From the NCBI RefSeq assembly GCF_016903815.1, contig NZ_CP069973.1: a stretch of DNA of 64,000 bases. One strand, written 5' to 3'. The notes under the pieces are model-generated. The model searched no databases and was not told where the DNA came from. It worked only from the letters and a program-made list of their open reading frames with translations. Positions 1 to 62,309 of the stretch are shown here, piece after piece; positions within the stretch are counted from its first letter, which is position 1, and the number at the start of each line of letters is the position of its first letter. Source of the stretch: Escherichia coli. GTDB taxonomy: Bacteria > Pseudomonadota > Gammaproteobacteria > Enterobacterales > Enterobacteriaceae. A program made the position numbers and the translations under genes.

Positions 1-810
1 GGTTTTTACTGCGGGCTGGCGCTGTTTCTCATCATCACGCTGTTTCCATTTTTTGTGATGCTGATGACCTCGTTCAAGGGCGCGAAAGAGGCGATCTCAC
101 TGCATCCTACGCTGCTGCCGCAGCAGTGGACGCTGGAGCATTACGTCGACATTTTTAACCCGATGATTTTCCCGTTTGTCGACTACTTCCGTAACAGTCT
201 GGTGGTGTCGGTGGTTTCATCCGTGGTGGCGGTATTCCTCGGCATTCTTGGGGCTTACGCGCTTTCCCGCCTGCGCTTTAAAGGTCGGATGACCATCAAT
301 GCCAGCTTTTACACGGTGTATATGTTCTCTGGCATTTTGCTGGTGGTGCCGCTGTTCAAAATCATCACCGCGCTGGGCATTTACGACACCGAGATGGCGC
401 TGATCATCACCATGGTGACGCAAACTCTGCCCACCGCCGTGTTTATGCTGAAAAGCTACTTCGACACCATCCCCGATGAGATCGAAGAAGCGGCGATGAT
501 GGATGGCCTCAACCGTCTGCAAATTATCTTCCGCATCACCGTGCCGTTGGCGATGTCCGGGCTGATATCCGTGTTCGTCTACTGCTTTATGGTGGCGTGG
601 AACGACTATCTGTTTGCGTCGATTTTCCTCTCCAGCGCCAGCAATTTCACCTTACCGGTGGGCCTGAACGCGCTGTTCAGTACGCCAGATTACATCTGGG
701 GACGGATGATGGCGGCCTCACTGGTGACCGCATTGCCGGTGGTGATTATGTATGCGCTTTCGGAACGTTTTATTAAGAGTGGTTTGACCGCCGGTGGCGT
801 GAAGGGCTAA
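1..810 (+). CDS. ycjP: ABC sugar transporter permease YcjP (5' end lies upstream of the window)
   Basis: ORF 55..810 extends to the window start. It is a polytopic membrane protein with an ABC permease EAA-like loop, and ycjQ follows immediately. Confidence 0.8.
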   Translation, partial: GFYCGLALFLIITLFPFFVMLMTSFKGAKEAISLHPTLLPQQWTLEHYVDIFNPMIFPFVDYFRNSLVVSVVSSVVAVFLGILGAYALSRLRFKGRMTINASFYTVYMFSGILLVVPLFKIITALGIYDTEMALIITMVTQTLPTAVFMLKSYFDTIPDEIEEAAMMDGLNRLQIIFRITVPLAMSGLISVFVYCFMVAWNDYLFASIFLSSASNFTLPVGLNALFSTPDYIWGRMMAASLVTALPVVIMYALSERFIKSGLTAGGVKG

Positions 811-840
811 AGCGGCCAGTTTCTTTACAAGGAGTTTTAA

Positions 841-1893
841 ATGAAAAAGTTAGTAGCCACAGCACCGCGTGTTGCTGCGCTGGTTGAGTATGAAGATCGG
901 GCGATTTTAGCCAATGAAGTGAAAATCCGCGTGCGTTTCGGCGCACCGAAACACGGAACGGAAGTGGTCGACTTCCGCGCCGCCAGCCCGTTTATCGATG
1001 AAGACTTTAACGGCGAATGGCAGATGTTCACTCCGCGTCCGGCAGATGCGCCGCGCGGCATTGAGTTTGGCAAATTCCAGCTTGGCAACATGGTGGTTGG
1101 CGACATTATCGAGTGCGGCAGCGACGTTACCGACTACGCGGTGGGCGACAGCGTATGCGGCTACGGCCCGCTCTCCGAGACGGTCATCATTAACGCGGTG
1201 AATAACTACAAGCTGCGCAAAATGCCGGAAGGCAGCTCGTGGAAAAACGCCGTTTGTTACGACCCGGCGCAGTTTGCCATGAGCGGCGTGCGCGATGCCA
1301 ACGTGCGCGTGGGTGATTTTGTGGTGGTGGTAGGGCTTGGCGCGATTGGTCAAATAGCCATCCAACTGGCGAAACGCGCTGGCGCGTCGGTGGTGATTGG
1401 CGTCGATCCTATCGCCTATCGCTGTGATATTGCCCGTCGCCACGGCGCGGATTTCTGCCTTAACCCCATTGGCACTGACGTAGGCAAAGAGATCAAAACG
1501 CTAACCGGCAAGCAGGGTGCCGATGTGATTATCGAAACCAGCGGCTATGCCGACGCGCTGCAATCGGCGCTACGAGGTCTGGCTTATGGCGGCACCATCT
1601 CCTATGTCGCGTTTGCCAAACCGTTTGCCGAAGGTTTTAACCTCGGACGCGAAGCGCATTTCAATAACGCAAAAATTGTCTTCTCCCGCGCGTGCAGCGA
1701 ACCGAACCCGGATTATCCGCGCTGGAGCCGCAAGCGTATCGAAGAAACCTGCTGGGAACTGCTGATGAACGGTTATCTCAATTGCGAAGATTTAATCGAC
1801 CCGGTGGTGACCTTTGCCAATAGCCCGGAAAGCTACATGCAGTATGTCGACCAGCATCCGGAACTGAGCATCAAAATGGGCGTCACGTTTTAA
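841..1893 (+). CDS. ycjQ: Zn-dependent sugar dehydrogenase (D-guloside 3-dehydrogenase)
   Basis: 350-aa ORF with an MDR/GroES-like N-terminus and a GLGAIG Rossmann motif, in the ycj operon context. Confidence 0.85.
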   Translation: MKKLVATAPRVAALVEYEDRAILANEVKIRVRFGAPKHGTEVVDFRAASPFIDEDFNGEWQMFTPRPADAPRGIEFGKFQLGNMVVGDIIECGSDVTDYAVGDSVCGYGPLSETVIINAVNNYKLRKMPEGSSWKNAVCYDPAQFAMSGVRDANVRVGDFVVVVGLGAIGQIAIQLAKRAGASVVIGVDPIAYRCDIARRHGADFCLNPIGTDVGKEIKTLTGKQGADVIIETSGYADALQSALRGLAYGGTISYVAFAKPFAEGFNLGREAHFNNAKIVFSRACSEPNPDYPRWSRKRIEETCWELLMNGYLNCEDLIDPVVTFANSPESYMQYVDQHPELSIKMGVTF

Positions 1894-1902
1894 TTCAAAG
1901 GA

Positions 1903-2700
1903 ATGAAAAAAATGAAAATCGGCACACAGAATCAGGCGTTCTTTCCGGAAAATATTCTGGAGAAATTTCGTTATATCAAAGAGATGGGCTTCGATGGTTT
2001 TGAGATTGACGGCAAACTTCTGGTCAACAACATCGAAGAAGTCAAAGCGGCGATCAAAGAAACCGGTTTACCGGTGACCACCGCCTGCGGCGGCTATGAC
2101 GGCTGGATTGGCGACTTTATCGAAGAGCGTCGTCTTAATGGCTTAAAGCAGATCGAACGCATTCTTGAAGCGCTGGCCGAAGTGGGCGGTAAAGGTATCG
2201 TCGTTCCGGCAGCGTGGGGCATGTTTACCTTCCGTTTACCGCCGATGGCCTCGCCGCGCAGCCTGGATGGCGACCGCAAAATGGTGAGTGATTCCCTGCG
2301 CGTACTGGAACAGGTGGCAGCGCGTACCGGAACCGTGGTGTACCTCGAACCGTTAAACCGCTATCAGGATCACATGATCAACACCCTCGCCGATGCTCGT
2401 CGTTACATCGTCGAAAACGATCTTAAACATGTACAGATTATCGGCGATTTCTATCACATGAATATCGAAGAAGATAACCTGGCGCAGGCGCTGCATGACA
2501 ACCGCGACCTGCTCGGTCATGTGCATATTGCAGATAACCATCGCTACCAGCCGGGCAGCGGCACCCTGGATTTCCACGCGCTGTTTGAACAGCTGCGCGC
2601 GGATAACTATCAGGGCTATGTGGTGTACGAAGGGCGTATCCGGGCAGAAGATCCTGCCCAGGCGTACCGTGATTCTTTGGCCTGGTTGCGTACCTGCTAA
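1903..2700 (+). CDS. ycjR: Sugar phosphate isomerase/epimerase TIM-barrel protein
   Basis: 265-aa ORF with an xylose-isomerase-like fold signature, in operon context. Confidence 0.8.
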   Translation: MKKMKIGTQNQAFFPENILEKFRYIKEMGFDGFEIDGKLLVNNIEEVKAAIKETGLPVTTACGGYDGWIGDFIEERRLNGLKQIERILEALAEVGGKGIVVPAAWGMFTFRLPPMASPRSLDGDRKMVSDSLRVLEQVAARTGTVVYLEPLNRYQDHMINTLADARRYIVENDLKHVQIIGDFYHMNIEEDNLAQALHDNRDLLGHVHIADNHRYQPGSGTLDFHALFEQLRADNYQGYVVYEGRIRAEDPAQAYRDSLAWLRTC

Positions 2701-2709
2701 GAGGTCTTT

Positions 2710-3765
2710 GTGAAAAGTGCAATGACAAGCTCTCCGCTGCGGGTCGCGATCATAGGCGCGGGCCAGGTGGCGGATAAGGTTCATGCTTCGTACTACTGCA
2801 CCCGCAACGATCTGGAACTGGTGGCTGTCTGTGACAGCCGCCTTTCCCAGGCGCAGGCGCTGGCAGAAAAATACGGGAATGCATCCGTGTGGGACGATCC
2901 GCAGGCCATGCTGCTGGCGGTGAAACCTGATGTGGTTAGCGTCTGCTCACCTAACCGTTTTCATTACGAACATACCCTGATGGCGCTGGAAGCGGGCTGC
3001 CATGTGATGTGCGAAAAACCGCCCGCCATGACGCCAGAACAGGCGCGGGAAATGTGCGATACCGCGCGCAAACAGGGCAAGGTGCTGGCCTACGACTTTC
3101 ACCATCGTTTTGCGCTCGATACGCAACAGCTGCGTGAACAGGTGACCAACGGCGTTTTGGGAGAGATTTACGTTACCACCGCCCGCGCCCTGCGTCGTTG
3201 CGGTGTTCCCGGCTGGGGTGTCTTTACCAATAAAGAATTGCAGGGCGGTGGCCCGCTGATCGACATCGGCATTCATATGCTGGATGCGGCGATGTATGTG
3301 CTGGGTTTTCCAGCGGTGAAAAGCGTGACTGCGCATAGCTTTCAAAAGATCGGCACGCAAAAGAGCTGCGGTCAATTTGGCGAGTGGGACCCGGCAACTT
3401 ACAGCGTCGAAGATTCGCTGTTTGGCACCATTGAATTTCATAACGGCGGCATTCTGTGGCTGGAAACGTCATTTGCACTCAACATCCGCGAACAGTCGAT
3501 TATGAACGTCAGCTTTTGTGGCGATAAAGCAGGGGCGACGCTGTTTCCGGCGCATATCTATACCGATAACAACGGTGAGTTAATGACGCTGATGCAACGG
3601 GAAATGGCAGACGACAACCGCCATTTGCGCAGTATGGAAGCCTTTATCAATCACGTACAGGGCAAGCCCGTGATGATAGCCGACGCCGAGCAGGGGTACA
3701 TCATCCAGCAACTGGTGGCGGCGTTGTATCAATCCGCAGAAACAGGGACGCGTGTGGAATTATGA
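2710..3765 (+). CDS. ycjS: Gfo/Idh/MocA-family NAD(P)-dependent oxidoreductase
   Basis: GTG start at 2710. It has the N-terminal Rossmann motif IIGAGQV and the EKP motif, in operon context. Confidence 0.8.
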   Translation: MKSAMTSSPLRVAIIGAGQVADKVHASYYCTRNDLELVAVCDSRLSQAQALAEKYGNASVWDDPQAMLLAVKPDVVSVCSPNRFHYEHTLMALEAGCHVMCEKPPAMTPEQAREMCDTARKQGKVLAYDFHHRFALDTQQLREQVTNGVLGEIYVTTARALRRCGVPGWGVFTNKELQGGGPLIDIGIHMLDAAMYVLGFPAVKSVTAHSFQKIGTQKSCGQFGEWDPATYSVEDSLFGTIEFHNGGILWLETSFALNIREQSIMNVSFCGDKAGATLFPAHIYTDNNGELMTLMQREMADDNRHLRSMEAFINHVQGKPVMIADAEQGYIIQQLVAALYQSAETGTRVEL

Positions 3766-6029
3766 CCAGGCCAGTAACGTTATCAGAACCCCATTTCAGC
3801 CAGCATACACTGAACAAATATGCTTCACTGATGGCGCAGGGGAACGGCTATCTTGGGCTTCGCGCCAGCCATGAAGAAGATTACACGCGCCAGACCCGTG
3901 GGATGTATCTGGCGGGGCTGTATCATCGGGCGGGTAAGGGTGAAATCAACGAACTGGTGAACCTGCCTGATGTCGTGGGGATGGAGATTGCCATAAATGG
4001 TGAGGTTTTTGCGTTATCCCGCGAAACATGGCAGCGTGAGCTTGACTTTGCCAGTGGCGAATTACGCCGCAACGTTGTCTGGTGTACCAGTAACGGCGCG
4101 CGTTACACAATCGTCAGCCGTCGCTTTGTTTCGGCAGACCAACTGCCGCTGATTGCGCTGGAAATCACTATTACTCCGCTGGACGCTGACGCGTCAGTGC
4201 TGATTTCAACAGGCATTGACGCCACGCAAACCAACCACGGACGACAACATCTCGACGAAACCCAGGTGCGGGTGTTTGGTCAGCATTTGATGCAGGGGAT
4301 CTATACCACTCAGGATGGACGCAGTGATGTGGCCATCAGCTGTTGCTGTAAGGTGAGCGGTGATGTGCAGCAATGCTATACCGCCAAAGAGCGCCGCTTG
4401 CTGCAACATACCAGTGCGCAACTTCACGCAGGCGAAACGCTGACGCTGCAAAAACTGGTGTGGTTCGACTGGCGGGACGACAGACACGTCGCTTTAGACG
4501 AGTGGGGCAGTGCATCGCTTCGTCAGCTTGAAATGTGTGTACAGCAGAGTTACGACCAACTTCTTGCAGCATCCACAGAAAACTGGCGTCAATGGTGGCA
4601 GAAACGTCGTATCACGGTAAAGAGTAACGATGAGCACAATCAGCAGGCGTTAGATTATGCGCTTTATCATCTGCGCATCATGACGCCTGCTCACGACGAG
4701 CGCAGCAGTATTGCGGCAAAAGGTTTGACCGGGGAAGGCTACAAAGGCCACGTTTTCTGGGATACAGAAGTATTTTTGCTACCGTTTCATCTGTTTAGCG
4801 ATCCGACGGTTGCCCGAAGTTTACTGCGTTATCGCTGGCACAACTTGCCAGGCGCGCAGGAGAAAGCGCGACGCAACGGCTGGCAGGGCGCGCTATTTCC
4901 GTGGGAAAGCGCGCGCAGCGGCGAAGAAGAGACGCCGGAATTTGCCGCCATTAACATTCGCACCGGGCTGCGGCAAAAAGTGGCCTCGGCGCAGGCGGAA
5001 CATCATCTGGTCGCCGATATCGCCTGGGCGGTTGTTCAATACTGGCAGACCACGGGGGATGAAAGTTTCATTGCTCATGAAGGCATGGCGCTACTTCTGG
5101 AAACTGCAAAGTTCTGGATTAGCCGCACGGTGAGGGTTAACGACCGTCTGGAAATTCATGATGTTATTGGGCCAGACGAATATACCGAACATGTCAATAA
5201 TAACGCCTTCACCAGCTATATGGCGTATTACAACGTCCAGCAGGCGCTGAACATCGCTCGTCAATTTGGCTGTAGCGACGATGCGTTTATCCATCGCGCC
5301 GAAATGTTCCTTAAAGAACTGCGGCTGCCAGAAATTCAGCCCGACGGCGTTTTGCCGCAGGATGATTCGTTTATGGCGAAACCAGCGATTAATCTGGCGA
5401 AATACAAAGCGGCGGCGGGGAAGCAAACCATTCTGCTGGATTATTCACGCGCAGAAGTGAACGAGATGCAGATCCTCAAACAAGCTGATGTGGTGATGCT
5501 CAATTACATGCTGCCGGAGCAGTACTCAGCGGCATCGTGTCTTGCCAATCTGCAATTTTATGAACCGCGCACCATTTACGACTCTTCACTGAGTAAAGCG
5601 ATCCACGACATTGTTGCCGCACGCTGTGGCCTGTTGGCGCAAAGTTATCAGTTCTGGCGGGAGGGGACTGAAATCGATCTCGGTGCTGACCCGCATAGCT
5701 GCGACGACGGTATCCATGCTGCCGCAACTGGCGCTATCTGGCTGGGGGCGATTCAGGGTTTTGCCGGGGTGAGCGTGCGTGACGGTGAATTAAATTTGAA
5801 TCCGGCGTTACCTGTGCAGTGGCAACAGTTGTCTTTCCCTCTGTTCTGGCAGGGCTGCGAATTACAGGTCACTCTCGACGCGCAGCGTATTGCGATTCGA
5901 ACTTCTGCGCCCGTTTCACTGCGTTTGAACGGGCAGCTTATATCTGTGGCTGAAGAATCTGTTTTCTGTTTGGGTGATTTTATTTTGCCCTTCAATGGGA
6001 CCGCTACCACGCATCAGGAGGATGAATGA
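3762..6029 (+). CDS. ycjT: Kojibiose phosphorylase (GH65)
   Basis: 755-aa ORF with a 4-bp overlap onto ycjS. The size and context match a GH65 phosphorylase. Confidence 0.85.
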
Positions 6030-6685
6030 AACTGCAAGGGGTAATTTTCGATCTGGATGGTGTAATCACCGATACCGCGCATCTGCATTTCAAGGCGTGG
6101 CAGCAGATTGCCGCTGAAATTGGCATCAGCATTGATGCGCAGTTTAACGAATCCCTAAAAGGGATCAGCCGCGATGAGTCTCTGCGACGCATTCTGCAAC
6201 ACGGGGGCAAAGAGGGCGACTTTAACCCGCAGGAAAGGGCGCAACTGGCGTATCGCAAAAATCTGCTCTACGTCCACTCACTGCGCGAACTGACGGTTAA
6301 TGCTGTGCTGCCCGGCATTCGCTCTTTGCTGACAGATCTCTGCGCACAGCAGATCCCTATAGGGCTGGCTTCTGTCTCCCTGAATGCGCCGACGATTTTA
6401 GCAGCGCTGGAGCTGCGCGAGTTTTTCACCTTCTGCGCGGACGCTTCCCAACTTAAAAACTCGAAACCGGACCCGGAAATCTTTCTCGCCGCCTGTGCCG
6501 GACTGGGCGTGCCGCCGCAGGCATGTATCGGTATTGAAGATGCGCAGGCGGGCATTGACGCCATTAACGCCAGCGGTATGCGCTCGGTGGGGATCGGCGC
6601 GGGCTTAACCGGGGCGCAATTATTGTTGCCCTCAACGGACTCCCTGACCTGGCCGCGGTTATCGGCCTTCTGGCAAAACGTATAG
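6026..6685 (+). CDS. ycjU: Beta-phosphoglucomutase (HAD superfamily)
   Basis: 219 aa with an N-terminal DxDGV HAD motif ([11 protein letters not shown]) and a 4-bp overlap with ycjT. Confidence 0.9.
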
Positions 6686-54925: not shown

Positions 54926-55391
54926 TGAAAATTCCTCAAGTTGGAGAGTTCTGGAACATTAAGGCGAGGTGGCAGTAATGCACCATCTGTAATCTTTTGA
55001 TACTGACGTAATCGGGCCTGATGTGCAACGCCTTGCAAGTATGTAACTCATTGAAAACGATCATTTTTATCTATTGACATCAAATGGCAAACTGTCATTG
55101 TGCGGCTATGGCAAGTGGCAAATGCTTATAAATCATATGGATATAAATAGTACAGAAAGAGTTGTTTTCTCTAGGATATGAGTATACGCCCAATGCTGAT
55201 TGGTTGAATTTTGTTCTTGTTTTAAAGGGTAAGAGTTTAAAGTGTTGGCAGTGATGTATTGGATAGTTAGAATTGCTGTGGGTGCTTGAGGCTATCTGCC
55301 TCGGGCATGAACACCAAAGGTAGATAGAGAAAAGCCCCAGTTAACATTACGCGTCCTGCAAGACGTTTAACATTAATCTGAGGCCATATCT

Positions 55392-55579
55392 ATGCGACAC
55401 ATAGAGATTAGCCTCTTACGGACCGAAAGGTCAAGGAGAAGCAGGCTATGAAGCAGCAAAAGGCGATGTTAATCGCCCTGATCGTCATCTGTTTAACCGT
55501 CATAGTGACGGCACTGGTAACGAGGAAAGACCTCTGCGAGGTACGAATCCGAACTGGCAGACGGAGGCTCTGATTCGTA
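55392..55579 (+). pseudogene. hok/mok-like type I toxin locus with a divergent, truncated Hok C-terminus
   Basis: Hok ATG at 55448 gives MKQQKAMLIALIVICLTVIVTALVTRKDLCEVRIRTG-RRRL-stop (43 aa). The first 38 aa look HokD/HokC-like. The conserved QTEVAVFTAYE tail is missing. A 19-codon mok-like ORF (55392..55451) ends in a TGA overlapping the hok ATG. Confidence 0.6.
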
Positions 55580-55655: not shown

Positions 55656-55997
55656 CTATTCTTTTTTTGCGGTATAGACTTTTTCGCCTGAGAAGTCTGG
55701 AGCTACCCAAAAGTTAATATTAAACTGAGCATCATCGCTTAGTTCAACACGGTGCCAGTATTGTGGTGGGCTTGTTGCAAAAGCGCCAGCATTAATGACT
55801 ACTTTTATCTCCGGTTCAGTAGCATTCTCATCAGCAAAACCATAATATGTTACAGTACCTTCCATCACGCATAACTGTCCAAAAACACCTGCTGCTGTAT
55901 TATGATGTGTTAATAACGCTGAAGGTACGTTCTCTTTTGTGAAGAACGGAGTTGAGCGTTTGATTACCCAGTCTTTAGGAATTCTCTTGTGTGTCAT
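55656..55997 (-). CDS. YeaR-like DUF1971 cupin protein (tellurite-resistance TehB-associated domain)
   Basis: GGGAGG RBS before ATG(MTHKRIPKD). The pattern RSTPFF..H.T..GV.G.L.VM.G.V.Y.G.ADE..EP...V.I.AG.FA..PP..WH..E...D..FNI.F.VAP matches the yeaR family. Confidence 0.65.
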   Translation of the reverse strand: MTHKRIPKDWVIKRSTPFFTKENVPSALLTHHNTAAGVFGQLCVMEGTVTYYGFADENATEPEIKVVINAGAFATSPPQYWHRVELSDDAQFNINFWVAPDFSGEKVYTAKKE

Positions 55998-56864
55998 AAC
56001 CACCTCCCATAAAACATGCATTATAAATGCACCTTTTTGAGGGTTATGTCAAGCTGTTATGAAACACATAATTGATATGTTGATTAGAGGAGAAGATAGA
56101 ATCAATATGGTTGTTTTTCGTATAACTATTTGTTTTACTTTTAGTTTGTGCATTCTGTGTGTTAGGAATAACTTATTAAAGTTTAACTAAAAAATCTCGA
56201 TATAGTCCGCATAGATTACTGTTACTGAATCTTATTGTGTGCATTAGTTGTGTTCTGAAATTTCAATTTAATTACTTATGATATATTTTTAACGATAAAT
56301 GTTTTCCGGGTTAAAGACAGTGGGGGATGAGATAAGCAATATATCATTAATCTTGATTATTTCCAGGATGCCTTTACTGTGCATATAAATAAATCATATA
56401 CGCATCAAATAATGTAAAGGCATCCTTTTAGATATATCTTATCAAATGTTAATGATTTGAGTGGGAAACATGATTCCAGAAACTAATCATGCGGCTACTT
56501 TATAAAAATAATGCCCATATAAAACAGCCAGCGAAAAGGATTACGGATAAAAAAGGAGCGAGATGTGCATAGTTGTTATTTTCCATGTTTAACCACCTTA
56601 AATAATTGATGATGACGGGATGTGCATCTGTAATGCTTTTGTTGAAATGTTATGATAAAAAAGAACTTTTTCATAACATTAAAATGTAATTTATCTAATC
56701 GTTTTTAATAATAAGTGTTGTATTTCTATCCTTGTATCAGCTATTTGATATGTAGTGTTTGTTCATGTTATGTGGAGCTTTACACCATAGCCAGTTTATT
56801 TATACTTTATTCGTCAGCCTGAACAACTGGCATCTGCTGCACTGCGCCATCGAGAGATTGAGAA

Positions 56865-57464
56865 ATGGCGCATATACAACTGGTCAAACAAACCTCTTCT
56901 GGACTACTTCTCCCGGCGACGCCGGAGAGTTGCGATTTTTTGCATCAAATCAAAATAGGCGAGTGGATACACGCAGACTTTAAGCGTGTGCGTAACTACG
57001 CATTCCACAAGCGTTTTTTCAAACTCCTGCAACTGGGATTCGATTACTGGACTCCGGTCGGTGGGGCGATCACGCCTCGCGAACGAAAGCTGGTTTCAGG
57101 ATTCGTTGATTACCTATGTGAATCAGTAGGCCGGGAACATACGCCAGCTCTGAGCGAAGCCGCAGAGCAATATCTGAATACAGTTGCGACACGCAGAACC
57201 CGGGATACGGCATTGCTAAAGTCGTTTGAGGCTTTCCGCGAGTGGGTAACCATTCAGGCCGGATTTTACACCGAGCATCTTTATCCTGATGGTAGCCATG
57301 GGCGTCGGGCGAAATCCATCGCTTTTGCGAATATGGACGAAACCGAGTTTCAGCAGGTTTATAAATCTGTTCTGAATGTGCTGTGGAACTGGATTCTGTT
57401 CCGTAAATTTTCCTCTCCGGAACAAGTCGAAAATGTGACCGCGCAGCTGCTGGAGTTTGCGTAA
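56865..57464 (+). CDS. Lambdoid nin-region protein (DUF1367/YbcN-like), hypothetical
   Basis: 199 aa, translationally coupled (TAATG) to the YbcO-like gene. Confidence 0.55.
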   Translation: MAHIQLVKQTSSGLLLPATPESCDFLHQIKIGEWIHADFKRVRNYAFHKRFFKLLQLGFDYWTPVGGAITPRERKLVSGFVDYLCESVGREHTPALSEAAEQYLNTVATRRTRDTALLKSFEAFREWVTIQAGFYTEHLYPDGSHGRRAKSIAFANMDETEFQQVYKSVLNVLWNWILFRKFSSPEQVENVTAQLLEFA

Positions 57465-57754
57465 TGGTGGATTTACGTAAAGCGGCGCGGGGGCAGATGT
57501 GCACCGTCAGAATTCCTGGCTACTGCAATCACGATCCGGAAACGTCTGTGCTGGCGCATTACCGACTGGCGGGAACGTGCGGAACAGCGACAAAACCACA
57601 CGATATGCAGGCGGCGATTGCCTGTAGCTCATGCCACGATCTAATCGACGGGCGGGTAAAAACCAGCGATTACACCAAAGAAGAATTACGCCTGATGCAT
57701 GCAGAAGGTGTTTTTCGCACACAAGAAATCTGGAGAAAGGAGGGATATTTGTGA
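57464..57754 (+). CDS. YbcO-like DUF1364 protein (putative Zn-binding nuclease)
   Basis: MVDLRKAARGQMCTVRIPGYCN...IACSSCHD resembles the DLP12 YbcO pattern. Confidence 0.7.
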   Translation: MVDLRKAARGQMCTVRIPGYCNHDPETSVLAHYRLAGTCGTATKPHDMQAAIACSSCHDLIDGRVKTSDYTKEELRLMHAEGVFRTQEIWRKEGYL

Positions 57755-58293
57755 TTTACCCAACGAATACAGGAAAAAGCGGAGAACACCTTCGTCTCGC
57801 CACGCTGGAAAGTGTCTGGATTCAGGGCAAACTGCGTATGTGGGGGCGCTGGTCGTATATTGGCGGTGGCAGGTCAGGAAATATGTTCAATCAGTTGTTG
57901 GCATCCAAAAAATTGACGAAAACAGCCATCAATGAAGCCCTGCGCAGAATGAAAAAAGCGGGAATAGAGAAAGCTGAGCTGGAAGCGTTTTTGCGAGAGA
58001 TGATCAACGGCAAGCAAAAGAGCTGGCTGGCGCATTGTACTGATGCAGAGGCGTTATGTATTGATCGAGTCATAAGTGAGGTGCTGGCAGAGCATCCTGG
58101 ATTGATTAGTGTCCTCCGGCAACGGTATGAAGGACGGGGGATGACTAAGCGCAAAATGGCTGAATTGCTAAATGATGCACATCCTGAGTGGTGTTTTAGC
58201 ACATGCGAAAAGCGAATTGCTAATTGGTTGGCTGTTGCTGAGTATGCCCTATATATTCCCATGCGAGAATCATTTGCTCAAAAAATAGCTTGA
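57751..58293 (+). CDS. Putative late-gene antiterminator Q-like protein
   Basis: GGAGGG RBS then a GTG overlapping the upstream stop (GTGA). It is the last gene before the terminator and the lysis cassette. The family assignment rests on position and weak motif memory. Confidence 0.5.
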   Translation: MIYPTNTGKSGEHLRLATLESVWIQGKLRMWGRWSYIGGGRSGNMFNQLLASKKLTKTAINEALRRMKKAGIEKAELEAFLREMINGKQKSWLAHCTDAEALCIDRVISEVLAEHPGLISVLRQRYEGRGMTKRKMAELLNDAHPEWCFSTCEKRIANWLAVAEYALYIPMRESFAQKIA

Positions 58294-58377
58294 TTTTTTA
58301 CGCATAAACTGCTTCAATTCCGGTATGCTTCGCAAAGCTGTATCGCGAGGCGAACCAAGCGCATGAACTTTACCAGA

Positions 58378-58406
58378 ACCCGCCATTGAGCGGGTTTTGT
58401 TGTTTC
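58378..58406 (+). terminator. Rho-independent terminator downstream of the Q-like gene (tR'-like)
   Basis: acccgc-cattga-gcgggt hairpin followed by ttttgttgttt. Confidence 0.7.
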
Positions 58407-58514
58407 TGGTACTGGTGAACCTGATGTTTCATTTCTGGAGCGCGATTCCTGGCGGAATACCTAGAATCGAGACATTCTGGTAAAATTGTTTTCAGTACAG
58501 GATGTGGAGGTGAG

Positions 58515-59084
58515 ATGAGAGAACTACCTAAAGATTATTTTTTAGGAGTAGATGATGAGCTCGTCGATTATCTTGAAAAACAAGGGGAAGAGACGATACG
58601 AGAGATTCATCTTTCTAACAAAACCAATGTTGAGAATGGATACAAACTTCTGAACATTCAGATTGTTGGAATTGGTTCATCTTTTTTATTGCTGACACAG
58701 AAAACTAATTTCGATTTTCTCACCGCCGGAATTACCACATTTACATTACTATGGACATGGTGCGCCATTTACTTGGTATGTACTGGTTTATCTGTGAAGG
58801 TTAGGGGCCTGATCAATGCCCCTCCTGATCATCTATATCATGAAAAATATAAGGATATGGAGCCCTCGAGCTTTAAAATATTCGCTGATGCAGGATATTT
58901 AGGACCTGATAAGTTATTGCCGCTTATACGAAGGTATCGCCTTGTTGACTTGAGTGATACAGCAAGAGAGTTACTGTTGGAAAATGAGAAAATCCGCACG
59001 AGTCTCGATAAAGCAAGGATGTATACCATCCTTGCTCCGGTAGCGGCGATGTTTATCTCGGCTGTTTTTTTATATGTTCAATGA
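58515..59084 (+). CDS. Hypothetical 189-aa membrane protein (moron between Q/tR' and the holin)
   Basis: AT-rich ORF with three predicted TM helices (IQIVGIGSSFLLL, FLTAGITTFTLLWTWCAIYLVC, MYTILAPVAAMFISAVFLYV). I recognise no family. Confidence 0.6.
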   Translation: MRELPKDYFLGVDDELVDYLEKQGEETIREIHLSNKTNVENGYKLLNIQIVGIGSSFLLLTQKTNFDFLTAGITTFTLLWTWCAIYLVCTGLSVKVRGLINAPPDHLYHEKYKDMEPSSFKIFADAGYLGPDKLLPLIRRYRLVDLSDTARELLLENEKIRTSLDKARMYTILAPVAAMFISAVFLYVQ

Positions 59085-59214
59085 CTGAGTCGGCAGAATC
59101 TCCAACAAAAACACGACGTGTAGCAAAGTCTGTAGTACTTTGTGTTGGAGTTGGTTTTGGTGCCACGGGTTGCTGAGGTTTATTTTCACCTTGTGGTTTG
59201 TTTTTTTCAGACAT
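59053..59214 (-). CDS. Hypothetical 53-aa proline-rich microprotein, convergent with and overlapping the 3' end of the moron gene
   Basis: AGAGGA RBS 7 nt before ATG. The product is MSEKNKPQGENKPQQPVAPKPTPTQSTTDFATRRVFVGDSADSVIEHIKKQPR. The 130-aa track ORF is probably an over-extension. Confidence 0.45.
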   Translation of the reverse strand: MSEKNKPQGENKPQQPVAPKPTPTQSTTDFATRRVFVGDSADSVIEHIKKQPR

Positions 59215-59308
59215 AAAAATCCTCTTTGTTTGAATTGTTACTTTTGGCGATTTAACGATATCAAACACGAGTATATACCGCCAGAAGCTTAATCTGGCAC
59301 TCCATCTG

Positions 59309-59340
59309 GCCCCGGCATGTCCCGGGGCTTTTTCGTTGTT
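59309..59340 (+). terminator. Rho-independent terminator upstream of the holin
   Basis: gccccgg-catgt-cccggggc followed by ttttt. Confidence 0.7.
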
Positions 59341-59431
59341 AGGCTCTGGAAACATCCTCGACTTCTTGTTAGCAAGCCTGAGAGCCTGAATCTTACACTT
59401 AGCACCATCCGAACTCTCGGAGGTGAGGCTT

Positions 59432-59773
59432 ATGAAAATGCACAATGCCCCTCATTCCTGGCCTGACTTACTGGAACTCTTACAAAGTTGGTGGCGTGGA
59501 GATACGCCGCTGGGTGCAGTGGTTATGTCAATTATTATGGCTGGTTTGCGCATTGCCTATTTTGGCGGTGGCGGCGGCTGGAAACGAAAAACGCTTGAGA
59601 TTCTGCTTTGTGGTGCTCTGACGCTGACCTTTGCATCCGCGCTTGAGTATGTCGGATGGCCTAAATCACTTTCTGTTGCCATTGGTGGTGGGGTGGGGCT
59701 GATTGGTGTTGATGCTATTCGTGGTGCGGCAATGAGGGTCATCGGTAACAAGTTCGGTGCCCATAAGGAGTAA
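59432..59773 (+). CDS. Putative holin with a dual-start MKM motif
   Basis: GGAGGTGAGG RBS. Two Met codons are separated by a Lys, lambda S107/S105-like. TM segments. Immediately upstream of the endolysin. Confidence 0.65.
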   Translation: MKMHNAPHSWPDLLELLQSWWRGDTPLGAVVMSIIMAGLRIAYFGGGGGWKRKTLEILLCGALTLTFASALEYVGWPKSLSVAIGGGVGLIGVDAIRGAAMRVIGNKFGAHKE

Positions 59774-60714: not shown

Positions 60715-60851
60715 AATCTTAACTACAATATGATTCATTTTGATGATTGTTTCATAAGGAACAGTGAAGTAAGATCTAAGAGGAGTTAAATTTTATACAG
60801 TATAATCATAATATTGCAGCAAGGTGGTTATAATTGAAAGAATATTTAGAT

Positions 60852-62309
60852 ATGAATACATCTCATGTAAGAGTTGTTACTCATATGTGTGGGTTCCTGG
60901 TTTGGCTCTATAGTCTTTCAATGTTGCCACCAATGGTTGTAGCATTGTTTTATAAAGAAAAAAGCCTGTTCGTTTTCTTTATAACTTTCGTTATATTTTT
61001 TTGCATTGGTGGCGGAGCGTGGTATACAACTAAGAAATCTGGCATTCAATTACGTACCCGTGATGGGTTTATTATAATTGTAATGTTTTGGATTTTGTTT
61101 TCTGTTATTAGTGCATTCCCTTTATGGATTGACTCAGAACTTAATTTAACGTTCATTGATGCTCTGTTTGAAGGGGTTTCTGGAATAACAACAACAGGAG
61201 CAACTGTAATTGATGATGTTAGTTCATTACCTCGGGCATATTTGTACTATCGGTCACAGTTAAATTTTATAGGTGGTTTAGGAGTTATTGTTCTGGCGGT
61301 TGCTGTATTGCCATTATTGGGTATTGGTGGTGCAAAGCTTTATCAGTCAGAAATGCCGGGGCCATTTAAGGATGACAAACTCACTCCCCGCCTGGCCGAT
61401 ACGTCACGGACACTGTGGATAACTTATTCTTTATTAGGTATTGCTTGTATTGTCTGTTATAGACTTGCAGGAATGCCTTTGTTTGATGCTATTTGTCACG
61501 GGATTTCCACAGTTTCGCTTGGTGGTTTCTCAACTCATAGCGAGAGTATCGGATATTTTAATAACTATTTGGTTGAGCTGGTGGCTGGTTCTTTTTCCCT
61601 GCTATCGGCTTTCAACTTCACTCTTTGGTATATTGTTATTAGCAGGAAAACGATAAAACCTTTAATCAGAGATATTGAACTTCGTTTCTTTCTGTTAATA
61701 GCCTTAGGGGTGATCATTGTTACCTCTTTCCAGGTCTGGCATATAGGTATGTATGACTTGCATGGAAGTTTTATTCATTCGTTTTTTCTTGCCAGCTCCA
61801 TGCTCACTGATAATGGTTTAGCTACGCAGGATTATGCAAGTTGGCCCACGCACACGATAGTGTTTTTGCTGTTGTCAAGTTTCTTTGGGGGATGTATAGG
61901 TTCAACTTGTGGTGGAATTAAGTCACTTCGATTTCTTATACTTTTCAAACAAAGCAAACACGAGATAAATCAGCTTTCTCATCCCAGAGCGTTGTTGAGT
62001 GTAAATGTAGGAGGGAAGATAGTTACAGATCGTGTAATGAGGTCTGTATGGAGTTTCTTTTTTCTTTATACTCTCTTCACGGTGTTTTTTATACTGGTGT
62101 TAAATGGTATGGGATATGATTTTCTTACATCATTTGCAACAGTGGCTGCATGTATTAATAATATGGGATTAGGTTTTGGGGCTACTGCATCGTCATTCGG
62201 AGTGCTTAATGACATTGCAAAATGTTTAATGTGCATAGCTATGATTCTTGGTCGCCTTGAAATTTATCCTGTTATTATATTGTTTTCAGGTTTTTTTTGG
62301 CGCTCCTAA
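60852..62309 (+). CDS. trkG: Trk-system K+ uptake protein TrkG (prophage-encoded)
   Basis: 485 aa from MNTSHVRVVTHMCGFL, polytopic with TrkH/TrkG family topology. AT-rich. Confidence 0.85.
   Translation: MNTSHVRVVTHMCGFLVWLYSLSMLPPMVVALFYKEKSLFVFFITFVIFFCIGGGAWYTTKKSGIQLRTRDGFIIIVMFWILFSVISAFPLWIDSELNLTFIDALFEGVSGITTTGATVIDDVSSLPRAYLYYRSQLNFIGGLGVIVLAVAVLPLLGIGGAKLYQSEMPGPFKDDKLTPRLADTSRTLWITYSLLGIACIVCYRLAGMPLFDAICHGISTVSLGGFSTHSESIGYFNNYLVELVAGSFSLLSAFNFTLWYIVISRKTIKPLIRDIELRFFLLIALGVIIVTSFQVWHIGMYDLHGSFIHSFFLASSMLTDNGLATQDYASWPTHTIVFLLLSSFFGGCIGSTCGGIKSLRFLILFKQSKHEINQLSHPRALLSVNVGGKIVTDRVMRSVWSFFFLYTLFTVFFILVLNGMGYDFLTSFATVAACINNMGLGFGATASSFGVLNDIAKCLMCIAMILGRLEIYPVIILFSGFFWRS

Follow-up and report, generated by a model that had tools for sequence, protein, structure and literature searches.

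A Rac-like Escherichia coli prophage carries, in the interval from its late-gene activator to its lysis genes, a small AT-rich cassette of two convergent, overlapping genes. The stretch of DNA analysed, referred to here as the window, comprises 64,000 nucleotides of contig NZ_CP069973.1 (assembly GCF_016903815.1), and the cassette and its immediate surroundings within it are laid out as follows:

57754..58293, plus strand: Q-like late antiterminator (DUF1133), flanking context outside the cassette
58374..58409, plus strand: terminator 1, tR'-like, after Q (stem 58374-58399, T-tail to about 58409)
58471..58486, plus strand: conserved motif GACATTCTGGTAAAAT, candidate promoter of ORF189
58515..59084, plus strand: ORF189, membrane protein and candidate effector, with GGAGG before its start
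59053..59214, minus strand: ORF53, basic Pro/Lys/Gln-rich microprotein, candidate regulator or antidote, with AAGAGGA 5 nt before its ATG
59237..59263, minus strand: conserved non-coding block upstream of ORF53, candidate promoter/operator
59280..59298: hairpin GCCAGA-N7-TCTGGC, from folding, between the ORF53 promoter block and terminator 2
59308..59339, plus strand: terminator 2, the cassette's own (stem 59308-59329, T-tail to 59339), from a terminator scan and folding
59432..59773, plus strand: lambda-family (lambda-S) holin, context and right edge of the slot

Both ORFs, their 32-bp overlap, the two terminators, the low G+C content and the position between Q and the holin had been described in a sequence-only reading of the window, and all of them are present. 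G+C is 0.39-0.41 in the module, below both flanks (0.47 in the Q gene and 0.51 in the lysis genes) and below the 0.48 of the window as a whole. The upstream gene matches Pfam DUF1133 (1.1e-106) and, weakly, Phage_antitermQ (2.4e-6), as well as PHROG 753 ("anti-termination protein Q-like"), while the holin, which has a Met-Lys-Met dual start at 59432/59438, matches Pfam Phage_holin_3_1 (2e-27) and TIGR01594 (5e-41). Homology to other DUF1133-Q prophages stops at about 58352-58408, and homology of the holin to other prophages starts again at about 59457. When the slot was surveyed across E. coli prophages it proved to be variable: the same DUF1133-Q/tR' module is followed in one locus (L036) by ORF6N-domain cargo and the same holin, and in another (L037) by tRNAs and another holin. 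These differing contents strongly support the suggestion that the two genes are cargo in a moron-type Q-to-S slot. The same prophage carries further AT-rich cargo, trkG, which lies after Rz, a few genes downstream of the cassette, and it also contains a Hok/Sok locus.

Terminator 1 folds at -18 kcal/mol (z = -4.8). Since it falls inside the segment common to DUF1133-Q prophages, we regard it as the phage's tR', i.e. as part of the Q module and the left edge of the slot rather than as cargo; a terminator is found upstream of the large gene in every context inspected. Terminator 2 has a consensus hairpin with compensatory changes in seven of its eight pairs across nine loci, and equivalents are seen in loci L026, L027 and L013. 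The description of a module bracketed by two terminators is therefore correct in that both are present, but of the two it is the downstream one alone that forms part of the cassette. While the terminator count alone is not above shuffle expectation (2 found, 2.2 expected), both ORFs and terminator 2 are retained in loci that have diverged.

The earlier description of ORF189 as a three-TM protein is borne out by three hydrophobic segments without charge (residues 45-62, 70-92 and 167-188, from hydropathy and charge), but with the qualification that the hydrophobicity of TM1 is marginal. An AF2 model (pLDDT 84) has helices at 14-62, 68-92 and 134-188, and the protein is predicted to consist of three helices running from the cytoplasm into the membrane. 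That it belongs to no recognisable family was also found here: ORF189 and ORF53 both had zero matches in Pfam, NCBIfam and PADLOC (for ORF189 none in Pfam or PADLOC even at E <= 1-10), and among PHROGs they matched only groups of unknown function (PHROG 11870 at 6e-108 for ORF189 and PHROG 14506 at 6e-33 for ORF53). A PDB sequence profile search gave no match and fold searches gave generic helical bundles only, nothing informative, so that neither protein of the pair was connected by HMM, structure or PADLOC comparison with a characterised family or an informative fold. There are 104 homologs of ORF189 across Enterobacterales, nearly all 189 aa long and at 42-99% identity, and the family is small, with about 100 cluster representatives (at 50% identity) among 1.84 billion proteins. 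In this survey its members were found almost entirely in phage or prophage neighbourhoods, and no chromosomal housekeeping relatives were observed.

The small ORF is indeed proline-rich, 53 aa long, convergent and preceded by a good ribosome-binding site, as had been noted. RefSeq gives a longer version of 71 aa with a GTG start; as the ATG is the start conserved across loci, we take the 53-aa product to be the correct one. The Shine-Dalgarno sequence and the ATG are kept in 14 loci, as inspected by eye. Differences in the alignment are distributed over the codon positions as 519/423/861, and the ratio of synonymous to nonsynonymous changes is 358:236 in frame, as compared with 99:580 and 95:569 in the shifted frames. 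This clear substitution pattern, seen in the ORF53 frame only, argues that ORF53 codes for a protein under purifying selection. Its conserved core, DF[AST]xxRxxVGDSA[DE], is followed by a basic tail, and the peptide motif is retained through about 37 sequence variants, with a length of 47-64 aa among 78 IMG/VR loci and 26-58 aa in more distant ones. Modelled alone, ORF53 appears essentially disordered (AF2, pLDDT 63), and Pfam, NCBIfam and AF2 gave no recognisable fold or domain; predicted disorder is as expected for a labile partner.

The two genes travel together. The convergent small ORF was found at the 3' end of the large gene in 78 of 80 IMG/VR loci, the two exceptions being single-nucleotide changes within an A7 run, and the same pairing was seen in about 14 other loci. 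Across paired loci the large proteins share 28-100% identity and the 3' ends overlap by 20-50 bp; pairing is retained in nearly every intact locus, even down to 28-32% identity. Beyond E. coli the pair occurs in Citrobacter, Trabulsiella, Serratia, Yersinia, Morganella, Pantoea, Providencia and Gilliamella, as well as in a metagenomic phage and in phage vB_Apl-pPE4. Conservation had been named beforehand as a test, and both ORFs are kept across diverged loci; ORF189 and ORF53 thus form a conserved unit, and the proposal that they are functionally coupled is strengthened by these counts. In a Salmonella lineage, an intact 192-aa homolog stands without ORF53 and with a co-directional 348-aa ORF instead, so that ORF53 is not indispensable; searches of Pfam and PDB returned nothing for this alternative partner or for the partners found in Pandoraea. 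About 4% of complete E. coli genomes (222-224 of 5426) carry the pair, and it is also present in prophages of many clinically relevant Enterobacterales. In every source its genes are "hypothetical", and a search of the literature by accession and on PycTM, SLATT proteins in prophages and lambdoid hotspots turned up no account of it.

Conserved non-coding elements accompany both genes. The motif GACATTCTGGTAAAAT, which the window shares with the Citrobacter, Trabulsiella and Serratia loci, contains an extended -10 (TGgTAAAAT, 58478-58486) with no good -35, and GGTAARWT lies 36-48 nt upstream of the large-gene start in 64 of 80 IMG/VR loci. The motif is missing from the Pantoea locus (L027) and from the immI-region subgroup. 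The Morganella lineage (L026/L089) has a similar sequence about 87 nt ahead of the gene start, on the upstream side of the terminator, where it may be that phage's PR' region. We considered whether the GGTAAAAT motif is simply the phage's own PR' and rejected this, since the motif moves along with the cassette and accompanies it behind four Q families. In Morganella and Pantoea the gene starts some 27-35 nt past the terminator with no promoter in between, which makes expression in the lysogen uncertain at these loci. The block upstream of ORF53 comprises an extended -10-like element, TGATATCGT (59263 to 59255), and then an inverted repeat, GTTA-N12-TAAC (59256 to 59237), of which one compensatory variant (GTCA..TGAC) was seen. 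Its conservation exceeds that of the coding sequence: nine diverged loci agree without exception at T, G, TAT, G and T, and TGnTATnGT occurs 46-53 nt upstream of the ORF53 ATG in 68 of 78 loci. A consensus promoter scan of the module found no promoter, the conserved -10-like motifs having no good -35; we infer that GACATTCTGGTAAAAT and the ORF53 block are candidate promoters of the cassette. The hairpin at 59280..59298 is likewise kept across loci, with GCCGC/GCGGC variants in Trabulsiella, and Rfam contained no RNA family matching the module. From the geometry, an ORF189 transcript extending to terminator 2 would run antisense over ORF53 and its promoter block.

The Q genes that precede the cassette belong to four unrelated families and the holins that follow it to several, and in vB_Apl-pPE4 a TerB-like gene and another ORF stand between it and the holin. 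In one sublineage (L107) it lies beside Arc/antirepressor genes, in the immI/antirepressor region and outside the lysis region; in another locus (L019) it is beside RHH/AntA, and a distant relative (L023) is located within a Mu-like tail module. In P22 the immI region is the site of sieA. On the strength of the four Q families, the several holin families and the sublineage in the immI/antirepressor region, the cassette is portable cargo rather than lysis machinery. In this respect it resembles lambdoid morons (stx in the Q-to-S interval, and those of the HK97 type), which are inserted between genes that are adjacent in relatives. It lies between modules that in relatives are separated by other cargo, its base composition is unlike that of its neighbours, it has its own downstream terminator that travels with it and may have a promoter of its own, and, being downstream of tR', it is predicted to be expressed on induction as well. 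It differs from these morons in that the cargo is a two-gene convergent unit and in having a second cargo site, the immI region.

The connection to pore-forming effectors of abortive infection is thin and comes from a single family member, P0145. Its place in the ORF189 family is secure (hhalign 99.4%, 31% identity over 171 columns; family profile E = 7e-22), it has the same convergent 53-aa partner, and it matched the PADLOC model for PycTM (PDLC02364) over its full length at 1.5e-8 and that for the CBASS "2TM effector" (PDLC00700) at 4e-5. Two further proteins, P0143 and P0130, matched the same PADLOC classes weakly, and PycTM matches were obtained for only 2 of 80 ORF189 family members. As the Pfam PycTM model (PF18967) scored P0145 below threshold (16.1 bits, cut-off 27.2, one TM segment covered), the homology rests on one bridging sequence and one library, and the relationship between ORF189 and PycTM would be at most a remote one, without family membership. 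Pfam-annotated gene neighbourhoods showed no pyrimidine cyclase (PycC) or other sensor beside the cassette, a broad-alignment homolog search returned no PycTM-annotated proteins, and a tblastn search of plasmids with P0145 showed no Pycsar context. What ORF189 shares with the PycTM and CBASS 2TM proteins (SLATT-like or Saf-2TM class) is a small size (189 aa, against 154-184 positions in the PADLOC models), a helical membrane nature in a setting of phage conflict, and an expected action, loss of membrane integrity, such as PycTM effectors are reported to cause during abortive infection (PMC11224242; PMC10402079). In contrast to them, ORF189 falls under every model threshold, its partner is a convergent, disordered protein of about 50 aa, and the cassette, which is phage cargo rather than a part of bacterial defence islands, lacks both a neighbouring cyclase or CD-NTase and a nucleotide-binding domain.

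Among prophage-borne systems, lambda RexA/RexB and P22 SieB/Esc also combine a membrane protein with a second product that controls it, with membrane depolarisation of competitor-infected cells as the proposed outcome, and SieB, at 192 aa, is close in length to ORF189. There is, however, no sequence relation: homology of the family profile to P22 SieA or SieB was rejected (hhalign probability below 1%) and Pfam, including its SieB model, was blank. Moreover, rex and sieB lie in the immunity region in a co-directional or nested arrangement, whereas the genes of the cassette are convergent and overlapping. Hok/Sok likewise pairs a membrane-acting product with a convergent transcript overlapping its mRNA. 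A type I toxin-antitoxin assignment was rejected since the putative toxin has 189 aa and three helices, as compared with a peptide of under 60 aa, since the antisense transcript of the cassette encodes a conserved protein under purifying selection, and since Rfam was blank. A type II assignment was set aside as well, the genes being convergent with overlapping 3' ends and ORF53 having no recognisable fold.

The functions suggested in the sequence-only reading (abortive infection, superinfection exclusion, or a membrane toxin with an antitoxin or regulator) are still hypotheses, for which the matches of P0145 are the one lead. The explanation that we favour, although we would put it slightly short of an even chance, is a membrane effector and a disordered microprotein regulator that are coupled by convergent transcription and serve in conflict between phages. 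The cassette would be a self-contained, horizontally mobile unit of two genes, spanning about 0.9 kb (about 58460-59340), that temperate phages of Enterobacterales and relatives have as cargo. ORF189 would be an inner-membrane effector whose N-terminal and central helical parts are cytoplasmic and whose three helices, one of them bearing a conserved GxGSS motif, sit in the membrane; its oligomers may form a pore or channel through which the membrane potential collapses, much as the small transmembrane effectors of Pycsar and CBASS do. ORF53, a basic cytoplasmic microprotein, would hold or tune ORF189 through its conserved motif. Both genes would be transcribed convergently from their own -35-less promoters. 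Because the ORF189 transcript would be antisense across the whole of ORF53 and its promoter, up to the cassette terminator, strong rightward transcription is proposed to raise ORF189 and silence ORF53. This could be Q-antiterminated late transcription, whether of the resident phage or of an incoming one whose Q is compatible, and the result would be premature membrane failure, i.e. abortive infection or exclusion of the competing phage. A more specific version, a new class of two-component defence switch borne by phages, in which a cyclase-independent PycTM-like channel is gated by the disordered microprotein in place of a nucleotide signal, convergent transcription sets the ratio of the two products, and Q-dependent late transcription, of the resident phage or trans-activated by an invading lambdoid phage, flips the state from "safe" to "lethal", seems to us doubtful.

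One may also consider explanations other than a lethal effector. ORF189 could sit in the inner membrane and block entry of phage DNA, with ORF53 as a regulator or accessory and no cell death, as do the known blockers of incoming phages (P22 SieA, T4 Imm and HK97 gp15). Classic exclusion factors are small prophage inner-membrane proteins in cargo positions, the promoter-like motif and terminator of the cassette fit expression from the prophage, and the sublineage beside Arc/antirepressor genes occupies the immI-like region where P22 has sieA. Nevertheless, we consider non-lethal exclusion unlikely: profile comparison showed no relation of the family to SieA or SieB, the sole sequence lead is to suicide effectors that form pores, and a strictly coupled, antisense-arranged partner in nearly every locus would be left unexplained. 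Less likely again is an accessory of lysis timing, in which ORF189, made from the late operon, would depolarise or condition the membrane and thereby trigger or delay the holin, with ORF53 silencing it in the lysogen. Membrane depolarisation is the trigger of holins, and most Enterobacterales loci have the cassette directly between Q/tR' and the holin, so that polymerase modified by Q must transcribe ORF189 together with the lysis genes; the geometry would also carry late transcription across the ORF53 promoter. Yet most phages with the same Q and holin lack the cassette, which accompanies unrelated holin families, also occupies two sites remote from lysis genes (the immI region and the tail module), and in vB_Apl-pPE4 is separated from the holin by intervening genes. 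Holin or antiholin identity was itself rejected, as ORF189 matched no holin family in Pfam or PHROGs and the association with endolysin genes is not constant.

A membrane protein of lysogenic conversion that has no part in phage conflict and helps the host with ion homeostasis or in tolerating stress would be in keeping with trkG as cargo of the same prophage and with a slot that often carries host-directed cargo (stx, sialate esterase and sRNAs; bioRxiv 10.64898/2026.05.13.724894). We think it improbable, considering that the family is tiny and almost all phage- or prophage-borne, without chromosomal housekeeping relatives, and that pairing so tightly coupled in antisense is usual for toxic or conflict modules and not for transporters. 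Finally, ORF53 might not be a functional protein at all, its minus-strand transcript acting as an antisense RNA on ORF189 in a type I-like manner. The convergent overlap, together with an ORF189 3' UTR covering all of ORF53 up to the terminator, permits RNA-RNA control, and the Hok/Sok locus of the same prophage uses such logic. Given the strong coding signature confined to the ORF53 frame, the conserved Shine-Dalgarno and ATG, the peptide motif kept through its many variants at a fairly constant length, and the blank Rfam search, this would be very surprising.

If the lysis-timing reading is true, the cassette would add a new accessory to the lysis programme of lambdoid phages, and if it is a defence or exclusion module, which is plausible, it would be a compact addition (about 0.9 kb) to the immune systems that prophages encode. 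Under either reading it can be tested directly, thanks to its strict pairing and its conserved regulatory block. Should the favoured explanation hold, i.e. a membrane effector coupled to a microprotein for phage-phage conflict, it would mean that effectors of the PycTM/2TM type can work without a nucleotide-signalling partner, under control of a microprotein and convergent transcription, and it would bear on host range in phage therapy and on the way in which resident prophages respond to incoming lambdoid phages.

The window comes from an E. coli chromosome and carries a Rac-type lambdoid prophage, marked by the RalA sRNA, sok and, 3' of the lysis genes, trkG. Its Q, holin, lysozyme and Rz set is still intact, unlike that of K-12 Rac, which presumably lacks such an intact set. 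Genes run in the order DUF1367, YbcO, Q-like DUF1133, terminator, ORF189 (the large gene), the convergent ORF53, terminator, holin, GH24 lysozyme, Rz/Rz1 and trkG, and the cassette interval recurs with 100% identity in many E. coli chromosomes and in four induced phages of E. coli, e.g. ON470614. The features referred to below are:

43166-43344, RalA sRNA, a Rac-type prophage marker
55280-55450, sok, a Rac-type prophage marker
57754-58293, Q-like DUF1133 gene
58471-58486, GACATTctGGTAAAAT, a motif upstream of ORF189
59263 to 59255 (minus strand), invariant TGnTATnGT upstream of ORF53, which reads as an extended -10, with GTTA-N12-TAAC next
59432-59773, lambda-family holin

The description given by the sequence-only reading of the stretch between Q and holin was borne out. 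ORF189 (58515-59084) has a GGAGG ribosome-binding site and the three transmembrane segments claimed for it, namely charge-free hydrophobic stretches at residues 45-62, 70-92 and 167-188, the first of which is only marginally hydrophobic and Gly/Ser-rich. ORF53 (59053-59214, minus strand), described there as a convergent 53-aa ORF with a good ribosome-binding site, carries AAGAGGA 5 nt upstream of the ATG and shares 32 bp with ORF189. The hairpin terminator described after Q was recovered, its stem at 58374-58399 and its T-tail reaching ~58409 (folding -18 kcal/mol, z = -4.8), and the one described before the holin at 59308-59339 by terminator scan and folding; the holin does have a dual start, Met-Lys-Met of the lambda S type, and the module is AT-rich as stated (G+C 0.39-0.41; Q has 0.47, the lysis genes 0.51). 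In RefSeq/PGAP the small gene is given a GTG start at 59268 and a length of 71 aa (59053-59268, minus strand; WP_152948782.1), but this is not the conserved start, and comparative data favour the ATG at 59214, which gives 53 aa; the 18 "extra" codons occupy the same stretch as the conserved promoter/operator block. Three other parts of the window deserve mention. trkG itself (60834-62309, 3' of Rz/Rz1, G+C 0.38) is a second AT-rich cargo gene within the late region; some 870 bp at 55997-56865, just downstream of the Hok/Sok locus and between the DUF1971 and DUF1367 genes, contain no annotated gene and have a G+C of only 0.28-0.33; and a non-coding spacer of ~90 nt (59340-59431), in which an Rfam scan found no RNA family, separates the cassette terminator from the holin start. 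In pathogenic E. coli, Pas sRNA genes of prophages are reported to adjoin holin/lysozyme operons directly (preprint 10.64898/2026.05.13.724894).

Homologs of ORF189, 104 in all and with neither a Pfam domain nor a name on any, are nearly always exactly 189 aa long and share 42-99% identity, in E. coli, Klebsiella, Citrobacter, Morganella, Providencia, Proteus, Serratia, Yersinia, Pantoea, Salmonella and others. The family is small, with only ~100 clusters in a profile search of 1.84 billion representatives, and only five of 50,697 deposited phage genomes, no model phage among them, carry a member. Directly 3' of the large gene lies a convergent small ORF with an ATG start and a Shine-Dalgarno sequence, overlapping its end by 20, 23, 26, 30, 32, 35, 42 or 50 bp, depending on the locus. 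The convergent pair is kept in Citrobacter, Trabulsiella, Serratia, Yersinia, Morganella, Pantoea, Providencia and Gilliamella, as well as in an unassigned metagenomic phage and phage vB_Apl-pPE4. The latter (PP818812.1, "Actinobacillus phage", 1-6561) has the same DUF1367/YbcO/Q layout with the cassette as gp32/gp33, and in the tR' region, immediately 3' of Q, its DNA is ~95% identical to that of the E. coli prophage; it resembles an enterobacterial lambdoid phage, and its assignment to an Actinobacillus host may be doubtful.

Of 80 IMG/VR loci whose large gene is full-length, 78 have the small ORF, in ~37 sequence variants, and both exceptions come down to one base in an A7 run in codons 3-5. 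In the window ORF53 begins ATG TCT GAA AAA AAC, with the run at 59200-59208 (minus strand); the two exceptions (loci L043 and L055) have A6, which shifts the frame, in otherwise identical copies, one of which also has an N. The difference could be a sequencing error or a slippage-prone on/off site. Small proteins follow the pattern M-S-x-x-x-K, a variable Pro/Gln/Lys-rich part, D-F-[AST]-x-x-R-x-x-V-G-D-S-A-[DE] and a basic tail. Substitutions among ORF53 orthologs fall mostly in third positions (519/423/861 by codon position), and single-change codons show a synonymous to non-synonymous ratio of 358:236 in frame; the two alternative frames give 99:580 and 95:569. Both results show ORF53 to be a protein-coding gene under purifying selection. 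The two genes are real and form a unit. Other arrangements occur nonetheless. Salmonella enterica locus L017 (AAEDGP010000025, 6001-7636) has an intact 192-aa ORF189 homolog without the microprotein, followed 10 nt later by a co-directional 348-aa ORF that has a ribosome-binding site, is uncalled in the source annotation, matches nothing in Pfam or PDB and may be an alternative partner. In Pandoraea (L023-L025, 5001-6167) a distant 163-aa member lies in a Mu-like tail module between DNA-circulation and baseplate genes, with a different convergent ORF (102-167 aa, no Pfam match) downstream. Another convergent overlapping pair, a YdfR-family gene with an 89-aa minus-strand ORF over its 3' end, sits inside a lysis cassette between the EssD holin and lysozyme (E. 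coli MS14384 prophage, L037, 6044-6626).

In all contexts examined the large gene has a plus-strand terminator upstream of it, which in the window is the Q module's tR', and the downstream plus-strand terminator accompanies the cassette, with compensatory changes in seven of eight pairs. Terminator-like sites were no more numerous than expected from shuffling, so that the significance of the terminators lies in their conservation, not their number. Conservation upstream of ORF53 exceeds that of the coding sequence: in 68 of 78 loci the TGnTATnGT block stands 46-53 nt upstream of the ATG, and folding gives the leader no structure. The ORF189 motif is found again in 64 of 80 loci, 36-48 nt ahead of the start. 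Both motifs are candidate promoters. If they act as such, the ORF189 mRNA would cover the whole of ORF53 together with its promoter in antisense, as far as the terminator, and the ORF53 mRNA would enter ORF189 at its 3' end. Late transcription antiterminated by Q likewise has to pass through the unit, in the same sense as ORF189. In the loci that diverge most, the enterobacterial TGnTATnGT block gives way, just upstream of the small ORF, to paired direct repeats of 12-14 nt that look like operator sites (e.g. ACCACAACTTATAA twice in L019, 5700-5800; TCTCAYGTAC twice in L030 and L011).

The proposal of moron-position cargo was upheld, since slot contents differ among same-Q relatives. Homology to other same-Q E. 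coli prophages stops at ~58352-58408 and restarts inside the holin at ~59457, and the interval holds an ORF6N-domain gene and another ORF in one relative (L036) and tRNA-Thr and tRNA-Gly in another (L037). The cassette follows Q proteins of four unrelated families (DUF1133, PF03589, PF06530, PF06323) and precedes holins of families 3_1, 2_1/2_3, 8 and others. A sublineage at 52-57% identity lies outside the Q-to-holin interval, beside Rha/ORF11CD3, a tail-assembly chaperone, and an Arc-like repressor with a Bro-N/P22_AR_C antirepressor, and the relative P0145 (28-32% identity) is flanked by Bro-N and by an RHH/AntA pair. Regions of this immI type are the kind of place in which P22 carries sieA. 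More distant again is the relative in the Mu-like tail module of Pandoraea, whose convergent partner differs.

Neither ORF189 nor ORF53 was recognised by any family library scanned, PADLOC included, and fold searches were uninformative. Among distant family members PADLOC gave one good match, P0145, to the PycTM model PDLC02364 (1.5e-8, residues 17-182 on positions 7-152 of 160) and to the CBASS "2TM effector" PDLC00700 (4e-5); P0143 (PycTM, ~0.01) and P0130 (2TM effector, 0.004) matched more weakly. By profile alignment P0145 is a secure relative (hhalign 99.4%, 31% identity over 171 columns), and it has the same 53-aa convergent partner. PycTM and related effectors are reported to compromise membranes in abortive infection (PMC11224242; PMC10402079). 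That ORF189 works like a PycTM/2TM membrane effector is therefore kept as the best available hypothesis. We do not call it a PycTM: such matches are confined to two of 80 family members, the Pfam PycTM model scores 16 bits on P0145 (cut-off 27.2 bits) and covers one transmembrane segment, and no cyclase adjoined the cassette in the gene neighbourhoods examined. The AF2 model of ORF189 (pLDDT 84) has three long helices (14-62, 68-92, 134-188) and short ones at 104-125. Read with the charge distribution, this suggests that the N-terminus is cytoplasmic and is followed by a hairpin of TM1 and TM2, a middle domain in the cytoplasm and a C-terminal TM3. Conserved residues in the middle domain are P104, L107-Y108 and RRYRL 139-143. 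TM1 has a conserved G52-x-G54-S55-S56 motif that would suit tight helix packing. ORF53 modelled by itself is predicted to be disordered.

We tentatively favor, at somewhat less than an even chance, a phage-conflict cassette in which ORF189 would permeabilise the membrane, ORF53 would restrain or tune it as a protein, via antisense geometry or both, and strong rightward transcription would tip the balance toward ORF189. A strict toxin-antidote version must accommodate the Salmonella lineage with its co-directional ORF in place of ORF53. One may also consider non-lethal superinfection exclusion, which is unlikely, the family having no relation to SieA or SieB. A lysis-timing accessory is less probable again: the cassette also occurs at non-lysis locations, and most phages sharing this Q and holin do without it. 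Non-lysis locations and varied Q and holin partners thus make a dedicated lysis function unlikely. We give slightly less credence still to a membrane protein that benefits the host, and very little to an RNA-only antisense role of the ORF53 locus, which the in-frame coding signature contradicts.

A full-text literature search found no paper describing the ORF189/ORF53 pair; PHROGs lists both families as "unknown function" and RefSeq calls both proteins hypothetical. The cassette varies on known kinds, the cargo gene unit and, presumably, the membrane-acting conflict module, and what distinguishes it is a strictly conserved convergent microprotein partner together with the lack of any signalling enzyme.
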